Assembly: GCF_006345805.1 (NCBI RefSeq)
Contig: NC_043011.1
Location: 22,394,464-22,458,463 of the forward strand
DNA length: 64,000 bases
Reading direction: 5' to 3'
Source of the DNA: Octopus sinensis
Taxonomy: Eukaryota
In this document: one piece after another, positions 3,367 through 47,684 of the stretch
Numbering within the stretch: position 1 is the stretch's first letter
Layout of the letters: the number at the start of each line of letters is the position of its first letter
Made by a program: the position numbers and the translations under genes
The notes under the pieces: model-generated
The model's database searches: none
What the model saw: only the letters and a program-made list of their open reading frames with translations
Told to the model about the DNA's origin: nothing

Positions 3367-3645
3367 ACCAAAGCTTTGTGAGTGGATTTGGAAAATAGAA
3401 ATTGAAAGAAACCTCTGTGTGTGTGTATGTGTGCGTTTGGTGTTTGTGTCCAATGACCACTTGACAGCTGCTATTGGTGTGTTTATGTCTCCATAACTTA
3501 GCAGTTTGGCAAAAGAGACCAATAGATTAAGTACCAGATTTGAAACAAAAAAAAAATGTACTTGGGTTGATTTGTTTGACTAAATTCTTCTAGATGGTAC
3601 CTCAGGATGGTTGCAGTCCAATGACCGAAACAAGTAAAATAAGAT
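3367..3645 (+). mobile_element. 5'-truncated family A SINE
   Basis: ACCAAAGCTTTGTGAGTGGATTTGG...CAGTCCAATGACCGAAACAAGTAAAA matches the 2285-2692 element. Confidence 0.75.
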
Positions 3646-4471
3646 AGATATAATTGTTTCCATATTTTGCAGTATTGAATAATCTGGATGTTATTCACTC
3701 ACATTGAGCATCCAAAATCTGCAGCCAGTATAGCAAGAATGCGACTTGATACTCTTTAAAAGTACTAAGTTTTCACTCTATTTATAAACATTGTTTAATG
3801 ACATTTAAACATTTGACATTTCATAGAATGCTGTTTGACATCATTATGATGTCCAACACTTCCCCTTTTTCTGTACTAACAATGAAGCCACCCCAAATAG
3901 AATTCAATAATCTTACGAGACAAAACACTGCAGTGATGATCTTTTTTTTTCATTCATTTTAGTCATTAAAAACTTTTTTCATTGAAAAATACAGAACACG
4001 TCTTTATTGCATGCGTAACCAACTTTTATCTTTTTACATATTTCAATTCACGATTACATCACTGTACATAAATCCCCTCACTAAACAAGTTTTTCGAAAC
4101 CCTTTTTTTTTGTGTGTACATATATATTCCCCTCCCCTTACCGAAAGCTGAACAGTTATCTCCCTTGCTCACAACAACAACAATAATAACGATAACCAAT
4201 TACCTACCCTTATTTTTCTACTTGTGAAGTCATTCACTCGTAAATATCATCACATACAACATGGACAAAAATTTCTTAAGAAAAGACATATTCAAATAAG
4301 TAAAACATAATATCATGAATAGCGAAAGCGAAACCGGTTGATATATTAAAAAATATATATTAAAACTATGTAAAGTGTGTGTATTTTCCTTTTTTAATTT
4401 CTTATATCTATTACAACTCACCCCATGGGGATAATTGAAATTCTTCTTTTCTGTTACTACTACTACTATAC

Positions 4472-4506: not shown

Positions 4507-5359
4507 GGATCACCTCATAAATAATGTGGTTTTTTACACTTCTTTTATTTTTCAAAATATTAATAAACAAACTTCTTTTTTAATCAAAAATATACTCTCC
4601 TTCATTTTCTACAATGCTCTTATATCTATCTGGTAGACTTGCAAGGCCCCTCTTCCAAAATTCATTTGTTTGTGATGAAAAATACTCCTCCAGTACTGTT
4701 CTGACCTTATCTACAGAATTCATATTTTTTCTATCCAAATGATTTTGAAGACTGCAGAGTAAATGATAATCAGATGGGGGCAATGTCTGGCGAATATGGG
4801 GCATTGTTTCCCATTCAAACTGCTCCAGCCTTTGGACTGTCATCCTTGCTGTATGTGGCCAAGCATTATCCTAATGGAAGAACACCTTTCATCTTGAAAC
4901 CAATTTGCTGACTTTTCTGATGGCATGCAGGTGTCGATCAATGTTTGAATAACCAGATCCAAGCTTCTCTGCTAGTTCCTCAACAGTTATGATGGGATTT
5001 CGTTGCACCAGGGTTTGCAGGGCGTCCTCATTGAGCTCTACAGATCTTCCAGGATGAAGCTCGTCTTCTAGGCTGTAGTTTCCGGCTTGGAATTTCTGGA
5101 ACCACTGTTGACACTAGCTTACACTTATTGTCTGATCCCCATATATTGCATTAATATTCCGTTGCCTTGTTTGAATTTGTAAAGCAAATTGAACAAATTA
5201 CTATTAAAATCGAACTGCACTCTTCAAAACTTGCACTAAAAATAAGGACAAGGTAAAATTACTACCTGCTTTTATAGCAAGTTGATGCAGGTAGTTTATC
5301 CCTTCTCCTTCTGACTTTTAGTTCATGCAGTTGAAAAACCGCATTATTTATGGGATGAC

Positions 5360-5363
<4 letters not shown>
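4505..5363 (-). mobile_element. Internally deleted mariner (DD34D-type) DNA transposon
   Basis: TIRs TTGGATCACCTCATAAATAATGTGGTTTTT / AAAAACCGCATTATTTATGGGATGACCCAA within TA repeats. Decayed transposase motifs WFQKFQAGNYSLEDE, FH*DNAWPH and PSDYHLLCSLQNHL (ORF 4580-4843). About 860 bp versus about 1.3 kb for a full element. Confidence 0.9.
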
Positions 5364-5397
<34 letters not shown>

Positions 5398-5400
<3 letters not shown>

Positions 5401-5560
5401 GCTTCTTTCAGTTACCATCTACCAAATCCACTCTCAAGGCTTTGGTTGGCCTCAGGGCTATAATAGAAGAAACATGTTGAAGATGTCACACAGTGGGACT
5501 GAACCTGGAATCAAGTAGTTGGGAAGCAAGCCACTTACCACACTGCTATGCCTGTGCCTG
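5398..5560 (-). mobile_element. Family A SINE head
   Basis: GGGCTTCTTTCAGTT...CCACTCTCAAGGCTTTGG...CTTACCACACTGCTATGCCTG. Confidence 0.75.
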
Positions 5561-8869: not shown

Positions 8870-9800
8870 AAAAGTGAGGATCATGGTAAAAGAAAAGGCA
8901 ACACCTGTTTTCAGGCCCAAATGGAATGTGCCATTTGCAGCGTTGAACCAGGTCAATAAAGAGCTAGAAAGTCTAGTTATAATTGAAAAGGTCAACCATT
9001 CAGACTAAGCATCTCTGACGGTTTATGTAAAGAAAAAATATAATAAACTAAGAGTGTGTGCAGACTTTTCAACTGGATTAAATGACTGTTTACTTGAACA
9101 CAACTGTCCATTACCAGGCCTAGAAGAAGTGTTCTCAAAACTAAATGGAGGAAAAATTTTCTCAAAGTTAGGCCTCTTGGAGGCCTATCAACAGATACAG
9201 GTAAAGGAAGATTGCACACACCTCTTAACAATCAACACACACCGTGAGTTGTATAAATTCAAGCAGCTTCCTTTTGGAGTAAAAGTGGCACCTGCCATAT
9301 TCCAACAAGTAATGGACACAATGTTAAATGATTGCGACTTTGCCATCACTTATCTCGATGATATTTTGATAAAGAGCAATACTTCGAACATATTAAAAAA
9401 GTATTTGGAAAAATAAACGAATACGGGTTTAGACTAACAGTGGAAAAGTGTGAATTTTTTATGAAAAAATAAAATATTTGGGTCAAGTAATTGACAAAAG
9501 GGCAACAACAATATGGAATATGCCTCCCACAATCAATGTCAAATTGTTACAAGCATTTTTAGGGTTGGTAAACTACTATCAAGTATATACCCCAAACATA
9601 CACAACACAAGGGCTCCTCTAAGCGAGCTGTTAAAAAAGGATGCCAAATGGCTTTGGTCAGAAAAAGGCCAGAAGGCATTTGAGGAACTAAAAAGCATGT
9701 TAATTTCAGATTTGTTGCTTACACACTTTGATCTAAAGTTGAAAACAATACCGGTGAGTGTGGGGTAGGTGCTGTACTCTTACACAAGTGTGAAGACATT
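8870..9800 (+). pseudogene. Gypsy pol pseudogene (reverse transcriptase / RNase H)
   Basis: PVFRPKWNVPFA, CADFSTGLN, TINTHRELYKFKQLPFGV, YLDDILI, LQAFLGLVNYY and LLTHFDLKL, broken by frameshifts. Confidence 0.9.
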
Positions 9801-11920: not shown

Positions 11921-13507
11921 CCGGGTGTGTAAGGTATTTGAGGACATACCATTTTTTGCTAACTCTGTATAATCTTTGTTTCAGAAAATAATAATGGCAG
12001 ACCCTCAGCTTACTCAAAAAATGAAGAGGCATACTGTTATTGTGGCTATAAAGACTGAGCATAGTGATTTAGAAATATCTCGATTTTTAAAAGTTGCCAG
12101 ATCTTTCATCTGTGAAGTTTGTAAGGATCTAGAAACTGATGATGGAAACATCGCCAGTATCAAAGCATAAAATACATTCTAAAGGATCTGAAATCATCAG
12201 AACACCTGAATTTATCCAGCAAGCTCAACAGACCATTGATTACAATCTCAGAAAGTCCATGAGGTCAATTGCAAAAGATCTTCATGTGTCAGAAGGAACA
12301 GTCAGAAATGTTGGCCACAAAGACATCAGACATGTCTTATATGATGAGGAAAGGTCAATTTGTCAGAAAAAGCAAAAGAAAATCACCACATCTCTCTCTA
12401 TATAAACGGCAGTTTGTCTGTGCGTGTTTCTGTGTGTCTGTTTTCTTGTACCCTCACCCTGACCACGGCTTTCAACCGATTCTGATGAAACTTGACACAC
12501 ACATAGCCCAATGTCATAATTCAAAACTAACGCAGCGAAAATTTTGAAAAGTTCCCCCAGTTCTGAAAAAAATCGATAAATTCGACATGGAGTCGAGAAT
12601 CAGAAACACAAACAGCAAACTGTCTAGGGGACGCAACTCCACCTTTTTTAACTAAAAAAAAAATTTACCATAATTTTTTTTCCATCTTTTTGCTCTTTTT
12701 TGGCTATAACTCTCTAAAAATGCTTTATAGTTATTTCCCTTACAAACCTGAGCAACGCCGGGCGATACTGCTAGTCAGATCTAAAAGGCTCTAAACAAAT
12801 TGAAAAATCCAGCAGAAGATTTGATTTAGTTTTTCTCAAATGAGAAAAACTTTGACGAAGATCAAAAAGTTAACAGAAGAAATGACAGATGGTTATGTGC
12901 AGACCTTTCTGAAATTTCAAGTATGATGCATACAAAATTTCCTGCAACTGTCATGGTTTTAGAGGTTGTTAGCAATGAAGGGCATGTGATGCCTCCTTAC
13001 TTCTTTCCACAAGGCCTTAGATTTAAACTCTGCCACATACATTGAGGTCCTGGAAATACTTAAGCCCTGGATAGACAGTGTATGCAATTGAAGGCTATAT
13101 GTTTCAGTGAGACTCTGCACTATGACACATGGCTCTAGTAACACAGGAATGGATGGATGAAAATTTTCATGATCACATAATCCCTAACATTTGGCCTCCT
13201 AATTCCCCAGATCTCAATCCATTGGACTTTTTTACATGTGGAGCGTTGTTGAGAGAGAGGTGAATGAATATGGCCACAACACCAAAGATCCTTTGAAAGC
13301 TGCCATAGTCAGAATAATGTCCAAAATGAACCAGGACCACTTGATTCAAACATGTAGACGATTTAGATCTCATATAGAAGCAGTTGTCGAAGCTGAAAGT
13401 GGCTTTATTTTTATCTTCAAAGCATTTTTTGATAAATAAAGTTATCTGTTATTATATATATATATTTTATAAATATAAATGTGTCCTTAAATATCTTACA
13501 CACCCTG
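11921..13507 (+). mobile_element. Tc1/mariner superfamily DD37D (maT) transposon, decayed, with nested Helitron
   Basis: TIRs CCGGGTGTGTAAGGTATTTGAGGACA / TGTCCTTAAATATCTTACACACCCTG flanked by TA. Transposase relic includes SMRSIAKDLHVSEGTVR, FFSNEKNF and D-SAL*HMALVTQEWMDENFHDHIIPNIWPPNSPDLNPL-D (37 residues counted between the two Asp). Confidence 0.92.
12391..12774 (+). mobile_element. Non-autonomous Helitron
   Basis: 5' TC(TC)nTATATAAA, 3' hairpin CCTGAGCAACGCCGGG followed by CTAG, inserted between A and T with no TSD. The first ~200 bp match 56110-56300 in reverse. Confidence 0.9.
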
Positions 13508-13760
13508 TATATATATATATATATAATATATATAATAATATATTATATTATGTGAAATAGAAAGATGAATATCTTGTAGTAGATTAATCAAATTTACCGA
13601 TACCTTAGTAGCAAAAATCACAGCAGTAAACAGCACGGTTGGAGGTACAACCATCTGGCGTTGCAACCGTGCGTTGGTGCGGATAATTGAAATTAAAACA
13701 TTATTGGTGAATTGAAGAAATGGAGCTGAACGCAGATTGAACAGAAATCGTTTTATTTCA

Positions 13761-13839
13761 TTCTACACGTGTTTCGAAAGGCACAATTACCAAAATCTGA
13801 TTGAATAATGGGACCATATTGTGTCTTTCTCTTCAGAAG
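13761..13839 (-). ncRNA. Minimal type I hammerhead ribozyme motif (copy 1)
   Basis: Minus strand: CTGAAGA-GAAAGACACAA...TTGTGCCTTTC-GAAAC-ACGT-GTA^GAA. Confidence 0.75.
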
Positions 13840-14139
13840 AAAAGGGAAATCCGTTGGAAAAACAAAACAGAACAGAGGCGGAGCAAAAAACAAATCGAAC
13901 TGTGCTCCTAAGAGCCCATCATCATCTAATCCTTTGTCATCTCTCCCATGAGACTCCATCCAATGTCATTCTTCACCACTTTGTCCTACATCATCATGAG
14001 TCTCCCTCTTCCACAGTTTCCATCCACATTTAGCAATTGGACATCTTATACATATACAAAATATATATATATATATAAACATTATTGTGAATTGAAGAAT
14101 GGAGCTGAACGCAGATTGAACAGAAATCGTTTTATTTCA

Positions 14140-14215
14140 TTCTACACGTGTTTCGAAGGCACAATTACCAAAATCCGATTGAATAATGGACCATATGTGT
14201 CTTTCTCTTCAGGAA
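14140..14215 (-). ncRNA. Minimal type I hammerhead ribozyme motif (copy 2)
   Basis: TTC-CTGAAGA-stem II-GAAAC-ACGT-GTA^GAA on the minus strand; cleavage triplet 379 nt from copy 1. Confidence 0.75.
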
Positions 14216-14339
14216 GAAAAAAGGAAATCCGTTGGAAAAACAAAAACAGAACAGAGGCGGAGCAGGGCTCTTAGAGCACAGTTCGATTGTTTTTTGCTCC
14301 GCTCTGTTCTGTTTTTGTTTTTCCAACGGATTTCCTTTC

Positions 14340-14419
14340 TTCCTGAAGAGAAAGACACAATATGGTCCCATTATTCAATCGGATTTTGGTAATTTGTGCC
14401 TTTCGAAACACGTGTAGAA
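14340..14419 (+). ncRNA. Minimal type I hammerhead ribozyme motif (copy 3)
   Basis: TTC (stem I), CTGAAGA 14343-14349, stem II GAAAGACACAA/TTGTGCCTTTC, GAAA 14405-14408, palindromic CACGTG, GTA 14414-14416, GAA (stem I), then AATAAA. Confidence 0.8.
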
Positions 14420-14709
14420 TGAAATAAACGATTTCTTTCAATCTGCGTTCAGCTCCCTTTCTTCAATTCACCAATAGTTTTTATATATATATATATTATG
14501 TGAAATAGAAAGATGAATATCTTGTAGTAGATTAATCAAAATTTAACCGATACCTAGTAGCAAAAATCACAGCAGTAAACAGCACGGTTGGAGGTACAAC
14601 CATCTGGCGTTGCAACCGTGCGTTGGTGCGGATAATTGAAATTAAAACATTATTGGTGAATTGAAGAAATGGAGCTGAACGCAGATTGAACAGAAATCGT
14701 TTTATTTCA

Positions 14710-14788
14710 TTCTACACGTGTTTCGAAAGGCACAAATACCAAAATCTGATTGAATAATGGGACCATATTGTGTCTTTCTCTTCAGAAG
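14710..14788 (-). ncRNA. Minimal type I hammerhead ribozyme motif (copy 4)
   Basis: Same core as copy 1, in the duplicated block. Confidence 0.7.
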
Positions 14789-15097
14789 AAAAAGAAATCC
14801 GTTGGAAAAACAAAAACAGAACAGAGGCGGAGCAAAAAACAAATCGAACTGTGCTCCTAAGAGCCCATCAGTCATCTAAATCCTTTGTCATCTCTCCCAT
14901 GAGACTCAACATCCAATGTCATTCTTCACCACTTTGTCCTACATCATCATGAGTCTCCCTCTTCCACAGGTTCCATCCACATTTAGCAATTGGCACATCT
15001 TTATACATATACATAAATATATATATATATATAAAACATTATTGGTGAATTGAAGAAATGGAGCTGAACGCAGATTGAACATAAATCTTTTATTTCA

Positions 15098-15178
15098 TTC
15101 TACAACGTGTTTCGAAAGGCACAAATTACCAAAATCCGATTGAATAATGGACCATATTGTGTCCTTTCTCTTCAGAAG
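15098..15178 (-). ncRNA. Minimal type I hammerhead ribozyme motif (copy 5, small indels)
   Basis: CTGAAGA...GAAACACGTTGTAGAA on the minus strand. Confidence 0.65.
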
Positions 15179-15305
15179 AAAAAAGGAAATCCGTTGGAAA
15201 AACAAAAACAGAACCAGGCGGGCAGGGCTCTTAGGAGCACAGTTCGATTTGTTTTTTGCTCCGCCTCTGTTCTGTTTTTGTTTTTCAACGGATTTCCTTT
15301 TTTTC

Positions 15306-15385
15306 TTCCTGAAGAGAAAGACACAATATGGTCCCATTATTCAATCGGTTTTGGGTAATTTGTGCCTTTCGAAACACGTGTAGAA
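15306..15385 (+). ncRNA. Minimal type I hammerhead ribozyme motif (copy 6)
   Basis: TTC-CTGAAGA (15309-15315)...GAAA (15371-15374)-CACGT-GTA (15380-15382)-GAA. Confidence 0.8.
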
Positions 15386-15492
15386 TGAAATAAACGATTT
15401 CTGTTCAATCTGCGTTCAGCTCCCATTTCTTCAATTCACCAATAATGTTTTAATATTATAATATATATATATATATATTTATGTATATGTAT

Positions 15493-15655
15493 AAGAGTGC
15501 AATTGCTAATGTGGATGGAACCTGTGGAAGAGGGAGACTCATGATGATGTAGGACAAAGTGGTGAAGAATGACATTGGATGTTGAGTCTCATGGGAGAGA
15601 TGACAAAGGATTTAGATGACTGGCAACTTGCTATACTCAAGAAAACCCATCCATC
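15493..15655 (+). mobile_element. RTE LINE 3' fragment (segment C of the array, continuing into the flank)
   Basis: Translates, with lesions, as NVDGTCGRGRL..*DKVVKND...MTKDLDDWQLAILKKT, like the RTE C-terminus at 36985-37200. Confidence 0.7.
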
Positions 15656-45213: not shown

Positions 45214-45983
45214 TATTTTATAAATGAGACTGTTTTTTTTTTTAGTAGTAACAGTATTTAGTTGAATTTGTTCATTTTTTTGAAGTCCCTTTGAAATTCA
45301 CCTCCTTTCTCACTCCTTTAACCCAATAATATAGGCACCTGTATTCTATAGGTTTAAATTAGATTTTTGTACATGCAAAACCTACTTTTGTAGTTTAAGT
45401 TTTGGAAAATAGTTTGGGACATTAAAGCAGATGGAAACTATTTTTGCTATAACTAGAATCTCTTTCAGGACCATAGAGAGAAATGTAGAGTTTTTAATAT
45501 TTGTTCAATGAAATAAACAAAATCTATAATATATATTTACTACTTCCAATTTTACCTGAGTTGCTTAAGGTTAACATTTCCTTGAGTCAAACGACCATTT
45601 AGAAGTTTCCTCCTATTTATTGTTTTTAAAAGAAATATATATTGATTGATGTACTTTGAACAGAAGTAGAGTATAACATTTTGGGAAGTACTCTCACTAA
45701 GGAGTGAGAAAGTATTTCTTTTCTCCCCAATGGAAATTACCACCTCACACATCAGTCTCTGTTTCTCATGGTTCACCAAATAAGGCTACTTTTGTTTATA
45801 TTTACCATTTGGTTTATGCTGATAGATATCATCTCTAGCCTACCAATTAAAATGTGTTTAGTTGTTTATACATTGTATTCATACAAGCTAAATTTACTAA
45901 CTTGAAACATTCATTTATATTTCAGTTTTGCTGCTGCTGCAGGTTGGGTTTCCTTCTCCCCTCCTATGTGAGTGGGTTACAGC

Positions 45984-46475
45984 ATGGCTTCAGAACTATT
46001 AGCAGACCCTTTCCACATGATGTGCAATTCTCCTGCTCCTGAGCCAACAAAATCTGGCAAGAAATCGTGGTTGGAATTGCGCAAAGCTGTCCGAGATACA
46101 CGTAAAGTTATCACTAGCCTTGCCAGTAGTGTGCCATCACAGTTTGTATTCCGGAAAATTCACACTGATACTGGTACTCTAACTCGATTGTATTTTCTTG
46201 GAGTACCTGCAAAAAGTCGTGAGAACACCTTTCTTTATGTTGACATTCCTGAAGAATCTGTAGAACCAGTTCCTTACTTGACATGGAAGCAACTTCTACA
46301 TCCATTCCAGATGATGCCTCTCTCAGGACATATGTCCAAACAAGAACAGCTACTGCGAGAACGGAAAAGGCTTGGTGTTGTTGGTATCACTTATTTTGAC
46401 TTTGTTGAAAAGGAAGGCAAATTTGTGTTTCCTGCTCACAATAGTATGTTTTTTTGCAAAGATGATGACATCAAT
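45984..46475 (+). CDS. DPP9: Dipeptidyl peptidase 8/9 (S9B family), first coding exon (164 codons)
   Basis: [72 protein letters not shown] closely matches the DPP8/DPP9 N-terminus ([39 protein letters not shown]). Acceptor TTTCAG at 45925, ATG at 45984, phase-0 donor AAT|GTAAGT at 46476. Later exons were not found in the window. Confidence 0.93.
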
Positions 46476-47684
46476 GTAAGTATTTTGTTTTATCATAAAA
46501 TTCTTTATATATATCTGTGTTTTTGGTTTAGATACTTCTTTCTGATGGTTGCTTTCTATTTTTATGATTATTTTGTATCAACATTATTTTTGTATTTTGT
46601 ATTATTTTTGTGAAGAGAAGCATGTGTATATCATCATAATCATAATTTTCATCTTTACCACTATCAACACCATCAGCAGTTACAGTTGGTGGTGGACTGA
46701 CCAGGTTGCCAGCTTGTCTGATGGCAAGTGGGCCTCTGCGCCATTAGAATCCATATATGGGGGCCCATATTCGTATCTAAGGGCTCATCCCTCAAGTTTG
46801 AGAATTTTTTATTCACTCCTGGAAGAATGCATTAATTATTTCAGCCTGGCTGTGTTTGCAGACTGTTGAAAAGAATACTTTTAACAAAAAACAACAAAAA
46901 AAAACAAACAAATGATAACATTGTAGTTGTTGGTGGGCCCCCTTAGTCTCCTGGCAACCAATAATTTTAGACCCAGTCTGCCACTTGCTACAGTACTAAT
47001 AAAAAATATTCTCTAAAATATTGCCCTTTTCGTAATATGATTTATCTTGATCAAACTGTTAAATCTACTGTCCTACTCTTAATAAAATATCTATTTTGGC
47101 AGGTCAAGCTCTAGATTCTAAACCTTGATTGATGAGCTGTATCAACCATTCTCATGTTACTTGTCTGTATTTTGTCAGTATTACATAAAGCTCTTCATGT
47201 GTAACATCTCTACGTGGTATCATATGTTCAGTCTATTCTTCCCTAACTTTTGTACATCTTATAGCTTTGTTGCCATAATTTGATAACTTCACAGAATCAT
47301 ATTTCTGATATCTGTGTCACACATTGACATTTTCTGTATTGAAGGAAGCTTTTTGTTCCTAATAATAGTTCCCTTAATATTCATCTCAGAATTTTTGACA
47401 TTACCACTTAGTCATTGTTTCCATTCCCAACAATAACTTCTTTGCCTAGATTATAGTTAGAAAATATTTGAAATGGCATATTTCTTTTGACATAATCATG
47501 AGTATTTGTATGTTATACTTTCTTTATCAATATTTTTATATTCATGTTTCTATGTTAACATATGTCTGGCATGGATTTTATAGAATATTGTCCTCTGTTT
47601 TATAGTATAATATATATTATAACATGATTATTAACTTATGATTATCACCAGTCATTTTGAGTCTTTACAACATCATTATCATTT

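Follow-up and report, generated by a model that had tools for sequence, protein, structure and literature searches.

The hammerhead unit that recurs six times between positions 13508 and 15622 of the window (the whole 64,000-nucleotide stretch of Octopus sinensis DNA analyzed here) is the 3' end, or pseudo-LTR (pLTR), of a young 3.65-kb Penelope-like element (PLE). The array itself is probably a 5'-truncated inverted insertion of this element in a (TA)n tract, rearranged by a fold-back copy of its flank and by a doubling. The hammerheads are likely to be passengers at this locus, which is likely not a dedicated circular-RNA element.

The parent Penelope-like element

When the unit was searched against its own genome (2.72 Gb), 839 candidates were obtained, and the 40 that were scored gave 44 near-full-length matches at 97 to 100% identity. 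The preliminary description of this DNA had assigned the unit to PLE pseudo-LTRs and proposed a genome-wide count together with a check for linkage to PLE ORFs. Both bear the assignment out: the genome contains 2,869 exact copies of a 28-mer taken from the hammerhead (versus 0 for its reversed control), and at one locus, L036, the unit adjoins an ORF with RT and GIY-YIG domains. With over a thousand near-identical insertions, the RT family is young.

The architecture of the element was defined on 20 loci around the best-scoring matches, which are a biased sample. L036 holds a 3,650-nt unit as a direct partial tandem, in the order pLTR, 156-nt segment, ORF region, 3' UTR, pLTR, and (TA)n; direct partial-tandem pLTRs were found there and at L025. 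The ORF of the L036 copy is interrupted by small indels in its 5' part. Judging from motifs, homologs, and a paper supplement, the family ORF encodes a PLE-type RT together with a GIY-YIG endonuclease at the C terminus. Pfam searches with six family ORF pieces and with the family protein (P0001) gave no meaningful match, and a sequence search of the PDB with the family protein returned 0 matches. The protein has 92 homologs, and both the RT and the endonuclease blocks are conserved in the 12 that were aligned. One homolog, P0040, matches it with E values of 1e-53 over the RT part and 2e-11 over the endonuclease part, and itself matches the Pfam GIY-YIG family with an E value of 3.7e-4, below the cut-off.

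The family protein (L036, 5386 to 7494) also contains two inserts that are not found in the 12 aligned homologs. The first, of about 60 residues, lies in the thumb region, while the second places about 95 Ser/Asn-rich residues where the cysteine linker would be and resembles the Asn-rich inserts of rotifer Penelope elements described in the accessible portion of PMC3846280.

Among four runs compared with the L036 unit, two putative RNA runs (X16 and X19) include contigs of 2,534 and 1,651 nt, respectively, along the ORF. A contig joint from 8259 to 4613 of L036 was considered as evidence for a circle and rejected, being the normal genomic adjacency of pLTR and tail. A candidate GT...AG intron of ∼77 nt lies in the 5' UTR of L036 at about 4704 to 4780 and spans the tail end; no spliced joint was found for it among the listed contigs of four runs. 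Our literature search, with most subscription papers, Repbase, and Dfam outside its scope, returned no paper on this family or on cephalopod long-stem hammerheads.

The closest clade appears to be Hydra, which comprises endonuclease-containing PLEs, according to motifs compared by eye with the proteins of a published supplement. The family is called Hydra-like here, rather than a strict member, because the CxCX5C linker is absent. The features that Craig et al. (2021; PMC8557442, accessible in part) give for the clade include DKT, RWK, CxCX5C, CxxC, CxH, (TA)n, and a hammerhead. DKT is present in the family protein (as QSDKT), and so are CxxC (CNLC) and CxH (CPH) around the C-terminal part of the endonuclease. 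RWL stands where Hydra has RWK, and the CxCX5C linker before the endonuclease, present in 12 of 12 aligned homologs, is replaced in P0001 by the Ser/Asn-rich insert. The family is further like the clade, Hydra-1_Obim included, in its RT motif set (by eye), its C-terminal GIY-YIG domain, its (TA)n targeting, with 1,121 exact tail-(TA)n junctions, its hammerhead near the 3' end, and its inverted 5'-truncated copies. It is unlike it in its length (3.65 kb versus under 3 kb) and in its stem II, discussed below. Hydra-1_Obim is another family, with a different hammerhead, and the peptide SDIGIIS is absent from the portion of the PMC8557442 supplement consulted. A placement in the Nematis clade was rejected after comparison with the Hydra proteins and the Hydra feature list in the same portion.

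Anatomy and origin of the array

The first 100 of the 2,869 matches to the 28-mer fall into 69 clusters: 38 single copies, 29 outward inverted pairs with 164 to 6,698 nt between the members, one direct pair, one inward pair, and none larger. Inverted pairs often lie within (TA)n. Their arms end at two fixed points, the end of the pLTR or 154 to 156 nt beyond it, both of which join (TA)n; genome-wide, there are 1,121 exact tail-(TA)n junctions versus 72 read-throughs from tail to ORF. Two such fixed ends are what a one-sided tail made from two RT start sites would be expected to leave. The hammerhead cut site is read through in both arm types, so the templates must have been uncut or religated there.

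This insertion layout matches those known for other PLEs, as far as the accessible parts of the reports go. For a lizard PLE in vitro (PMC11167929), these describe two RT start sites, cutting of both strands, and AT-rich targets, with hammerhead cleavage dispensable and protein-assisted; no RNA ends at the hammerhead cut site were found for it. Inverted pLTR pairs with one tail and the capture of host DNA are described in PMC3846280 and PMC8557442. The Adineta vaga Penelope (PMC3846280, same portion) is like the octopus family in its direct and inverted pLTRs, one-sided tail, palindromic inversion junctions, host DNA captured between pLTRs, and Asn-rich ORF inserts, and unlike it in having a tail of about 31 nt versus 156 nt and a low copy number versus thousands.

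Two family loci show odd junctions, a 128-nt local re-copy at the ORF start (L022, about 5286 to 5414) and a 12-nt unit repeated five times at the inversion point (L034, 3544 to 3604). These suggest template jumps by this RT.

Read from left to right, the array starts at the (TA)n tract of the left target site (13508 to 13547, from Tandem Repeats Finder). It continues on the minus strand with arm A1, composed of a 156-nt tail (13546 to 13693), which is the 5' UTR segment that follows the pLTR in the element (L036, 4613 to 4762), and a pLTR copy (13694 to 13919) whose hammerhead (13836 to 13764, cut after 13764) is without the stem I closing C. The end of the A1 tail is the first of the family's two fixed junctions with (TA)n. 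X'1 (13922 to 14060, minus strand) is an inverted copy of the right flank at 15480 to 15619, with 95% identity and 5 indels, and is followed by (TA)n copied along with the flank (14061 to 14076). A fold-back copy of arm B, with the pLTR from position 35 (14077 to 14264, minus strand; hammerhead 14212 to 14143, full motif), then abuts arm B1, a tail-less pLTR on the plus strand (14265 to 14482; hammerhead 14343 to 14416, full motif).

A further (TA)n (14482 to 14495) marks the junction of two ∼950-nt blocks. The second comprises arm A2 (14490 to 14868, minus strand), with tail and pLTR, a hammerhead at 14785 to 14713, and A1's private changes; X'2 with its (TA)n (14869 to 15032, minus strand), an inverted copy of the right flank at 15462 to 15622 with 97.6% identity; another fold-back copy of arm B (15032 to 15221, minus strand), with a hammerhead at 15175 to 15101 that has ACGUU and no stem I closing C; and arm B2 (15225 to 15454, plus strand), a tail-less pLTR with a full-motif hammerhead at 15309 to 15382. 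Arm B2 ends at the second of the family's fixed junctions with (TA)n, here the tract of the right target site (15451 to 15478), after which X (15480 to 15622, plus strand), the source of X'1 and X'2, starts the right flank. The block repeat at 14485 to 15470 is 95.0% identical, with 41 gap columns and 9 mismatches. The six copies of a ∼220-bp unit reported earlier are all there, but their sizes are uneven (190 to 230 nt), two being 5'-shortened to ∼190 nt and two bearing the 156-nt tail. In the array region Tandem Repeats Finder detects (TA)n only, also at periods up to 2000, and the tandem ∼380-nt array once proposed is not among its results.

A short series of events would probably account for this arrangement. 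The GIY-YIG endonuclease would cut both strands within (TA)n, and the RT would prime at the two start sites of the family, so that arm A, with its tail, would form on the left and arm B, without one, on the right, each stopping once ∼230 nt of pLTR had been made. Near its end, the newly made strand of arm B would fold back, and its extension would copy the strand itself, the (TA)n, and ∼140 nt of the right flank before it was joined to the end of arm A. Finally, misalignment of the (TA)n tracts on either side would double the block, whether in the genome or in the assembly. This order is inferred from one assembled sequence, in which A1 and A2 share private changes that the B copies do not have, as expected if the doubling came last. 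No microhomology was evident at the fold-back junction or at the X-to-pLTR junction.

The flank DNA also accounts for the ∼380-nt spacing between same-strand hammerheads. Of this interval, ∼66 nt come from the end of arm B and 155 nt from the start of arm A, with (TA)n and 140 nt of local flank in between, and it thus owes its length to ∼140 nt of flank DNA that is found at high identity in the window only. Among the best 40 of 1,678 candidates, which were scored, X is matched at 95 to 100% identity at its three window places only, the other 37 matching at 70 to 82%; judged by these matches, X is part of an old dispersed repeat. A spacing pattern of 367 to 397 nt between same-strand motifs has 5 exact matches at 4 loci genome-wide. 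The first pair of the window is one of them, and the second pair is missed owing to an extra base. At the three other loci a local sequence has been doubled between (TA)n tracts, with a different make-up at each (L056, a truncated pLTR with tail present twice in copies 99.5% identical; L058, an inverted pair present twice; L059, two inverted pairs). The ∼380-nt monomer is not a dispersed family. Flank capture was seen at 1 of 30 other loci examined, L021, where 188 nt of a 212-nt insert at the inversion point (3441 to 3652) are a 100% inverted copy of the flank 274 to 461 nt beyond the tail-less arm.

We consider it rather unlikely that the PLE insertion is real and the six-copy array partly an assembly or read artefact, in which case the true allele would have two hammerheads (a plain inverted pair) or four (one block), the others having arisen when a long read changed strand at the hairpin or when an overlap was mis-joined at (TA)n. 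The two blocks are 31 indel events apart, 20 of them single-base homopolymer changes, compared to 8 events in the direct repeats of L036 and 2 in the tandem of L056, and X'1 and X'2 each differ from X by 5 indels. Each window copy has 6 to 16 differences from the family majority versus a mean of 1.4 in 35 other copies, although the latter are top matches and understate normal noise. Such insertions are known to trouble assemblies, according to the accessible part of PMC8557442. As the block is rich in indels, the doubling may be an assembly error; the 31 indel events and 8 substitutions between the blocks fit a noisy consensus as well as real divergence, and the doubling may be absent from the genome. 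An artefact does not sit easily with the fact that both junction types fall at the same positions in both blocks, nor with the private changes of A1 and A2, and both a clean flank capture (L021) and a clean doubling (L056) are present elsewhere in the assembly.

Part of the stretch is present in 20 of 24 listed sequencing runs, none of which is recorded as an RNA run. Over 13000 to 14076, one contig each from runs X2, X17, and X6 spans X' (13928 to 14029) and continues with 655 to 702 other letters, and the X' region is uncovered in run X1. The X'-pLTR junction is bridged by no listed contig of four runs in this interval (76 to 98% of three large runs read), which is no proof of absence, as the contigs are possibly from other animals or species.

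Elsewhere in the window, an exon for the N-terminal domain of dipeptidyl peptidase 8/9 (45972 to 46613, plus strand; PF19520, E value of 3.8e-19) lies 30 kb to the right of the array, and a fragment of an LTR-type reverse transcriptase is present at 9009 to 9416 on the plus strand (RVT_1, E value of 1.7e-15). The left flank, at about 12770 to 13507, is a high-copy repeat, which we take from its look to be a decayed mariner-type transposon ending at the target (TA)n.

Hammerhead motifs and their long stem II

Cleavage is predicted after 13764, 14143, 14713, and 15101 on the minus strand and after 14416 and 15382 on the plus strand. Re-derived coordinates confirmed the six copies, four on the minus and two on the plus strand, and recomputed same-strand spacings agreed with the 379 and 388 nt given before. 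The pattern CTGANGA-N40-70-GAAAC-NNNN-GTH has 5 matches in the window versus 0.02 expected, and at least 5 matches were found in 0 of 100 shuffles of the window. The pattern misses the copy cut after 15101, the loop 3 of which is 5 nt long, one extra base.

CUGAAGA, GAAA, and GUA are undamaged in 6 of 6 copies and AATAAA lies downstream of every one, in agreement with the intact cores already noted. The complete string UUC-CUGAAGA...GAAAC-ACGU-GUA-GAA, which had been ascribed to each copy, is present in three (14143, 14416, and 15382) and absent from 13764, 14713, and 15101, where the stem I closing C is missing. The ACGUU of copy 15101 also breaks the palindrome ACACGUGU, which is undamaged in 5 of 6 window copies. 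Stem I or the palindrome is in this way damaged in 3 of 6 motifs, with at least one such motif in each same-strand pair, and this damage possibly reflects consensus errors. Outside the window, the motif is complete in 32 of 35 family copies, all of them top matches.

As had been recognized, the motifs correspond to the minimal type I hammerhead whose stem III is palindromic. They have CUGANGA, GAAA, NUH, a G10.1-C11.1 pair, and a palindromic helix III. The Rfam search that had been suggested returned 0 matches at the gathering score for the whole window. Folds of the whole motif, calculated for 3 copies, were no more stable than shuffles (z of −0.14 to −0.84) and give no support. As a ribozyme, the hammerhead is predicted to require a dimer or a protein and to serve the RNA of the parent element.

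In the window copies, the segment between the core halves is 51 to 55 nt long, with a proximal helix of 5 + 6 bp opened by the G10.1-C11.1 pair. Stem II had been called unusually long, and it is so in comparison to the Hydra clade, for which File S2 of PMC8557442, the one table from which we took stem II lengths for Hydra-like elements of other animals, gives at most about 24 nt in its 26 Hydra rows. The same file lists one spike-moss PLE, as a deviant, with about 53 nt, which provides a precedent for a long stem II.

A long-stem pattern that excludes the core variant of the window has 233 matches in the genome versus 3 for the control. At 30 loci examined we obtained 12 distinct stems of 52 to 63 nt. 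Three or more groups that bear no sequence relation to this family are represented among them, and each of the 12 stems outperforms 95 or more of 100 base shuffles in folding (single-base shuffles, with the closing pair forced). One of the groups (L091) flanks remnants of a Hydra-like RT and endonuclease (tblastn, E value of 5e-26). At the six loci examined around other long-stem hammerheads, tblastn gave matches at one and an endonuclease-like frame was seen by eye at one, and no coding link was found at the remaining four by tblastn with RT and endonuclease or by eye. Other hammerhead families with the ACACGUGU palindrome and a 52- to 63-nt stem II are present at L062 to L090, L091, and L093. 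Next to L093 is a frame that, by eye, encodes a GIY-YIG-like domain with a CxxC linker, a hint of the same long-stem variant in another PLE clade. Five near-identical copies of one long-stem variant (L076 to L080) lie within 0.6 Mb of one contig, at 159.67 to 160.29 Mb, and are possibly a segmental repeat.

Minimal hammerheads on opposite strands 100 to 700 bp apart, with weak dimer cleavage, are described in the accessible part of PMC4209133. The octopus motif is like known minimal hammerheads in that helix I is short, helix II is enlarged, a G10.1-C11.1 pair is present, helix III is tiny and palindromic, copies are dispersed in thousands, and opposite-strand pairs lie at such distances. It differs from them in a far longer helix II, with an 11-bp proximal stem containing one mismatch and a ∼32-nt apical part, and in having no extra unpaired base after A9.

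Relation to retrozymes and significance

The locus had been described as a retrozyme-like array, a view that is not supported: it is a PLE of the autonomous type that the unit terminates, and the spacer is a copy of the insertion's own flank. Retrozymes are defined as homogeneous tandem monomers in the portions consulted of PMC7229834 and 10.64898/2026.07.22.740005, and a homogeneous head-to-tail array of 150- to 450-nt monomers is absent from the window (Tandem Repeats Finder to period 2000 and segment map). Compared with metazoan non-LTR retrozymes as described there, the locus is alike in having same-strand type I hammerheads at a distance of ∼380 nt, no coding capacity, low GC, and pLTR-derived sequence. 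It is unlike them in that its monomer is not dispersed, half of its copies are inverted, its spacer is local flank DNA, its motif is PLE-minimal and not canonical, and it is known from assembled DNA.

That the locus acts as a nascent non-LTR retrozyme is very improbable. A transcript would have to start from a pLTR near the fold-back centre, two same-strand hammerheads would pair via their ACACGUGU palindromes, and a ∼380-nt RNA with the captured flank would be cut out and closed by ligation into a circle, which the PLE RT could copy in trans. Such a birth is conceivable because an origin of retrozymes from PLE pLTRs is argued in the part of 10.64898/2026.07.22.740005 available; the genome also has a young RT family, the core nucleotides of all six copies are undamaged, and the size is that of mussel retrozymes (350 to 390 nt in the same extract of PMC7229834). 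High-identity X is nevertheless confined to the window among the best 40 of 1,678 candidates scored, with no progeny found, and the 5 spacing-pattern matches at 4 loci differ in make-up. In each pair, one motif or both are damaged. Cleavage by the minimal hammerheads of PLEs is weak even in dimers (PMC4209133), and no RNA ends at the cut site were detected for the lizard PLE (PMC11167929), both as far as the accessible parts of the papers report. The excised RNA would, moreover, have the tail-less RT start site and neither the tail start site nor the ORF sequence that the lizard PLE protein required (PMC11167929, same part).

Calculated folds bear on this question as well. In the transcript 14262 to 13690, the dimeric core of the first pair, with an 8-bp ACACGUGU helix III, lies only 8.2 kcal/mol above the free minimum, and with this penalty a transcript starting inside the array may release a ∼380-nt RNA. 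The penalty for the second pair, in a transcript from the fold-back centre, is 19.3 kcal/mol. With the antisense arm included, the dimeric fold costs 121 and 151 kcal/mol, and one or two motifs in each fold are fully paired to the arm. Sequestration of the ribozymes by the antisense arms is predicted, and the likely main product of a read-through transcript would be long dsRNA hairpins, in keeping with the earlier proposal that the inverted arms would produce dsRNA if transcribed.

We see a slim chance that a retrozyme has been caught at birth here, with flank capture and (TA)n doubling as a route from pLTR to retrozyme and the ∼55-nt stem II as the functional module of an undescribed hammerhead subtype. 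It is an equally slim prospect that this module is protein-binding or dimer-stabilizing and has been kept by several unrelated PLE families. Should this reading be true, the locus would give a direct view of PLE ends turning into circular-RNA retrozymes.

Most likely, the array is an ordinary by-product of a known retrotransposon class, and it cautions against calling a retrozyme from hammerheads that share a strand and lie within a few hundred bases of each other. Hammerheads with a long stem II are missed by Rfam and would likely be missed by short-spacer descriptors too. What modest use there is lies with the family, not the locus: a very young Hydra-like PLE in which the RT starts at two sharply fixed sites and flank DNA is now and then captured offers genomic material on how PLEs integrate.
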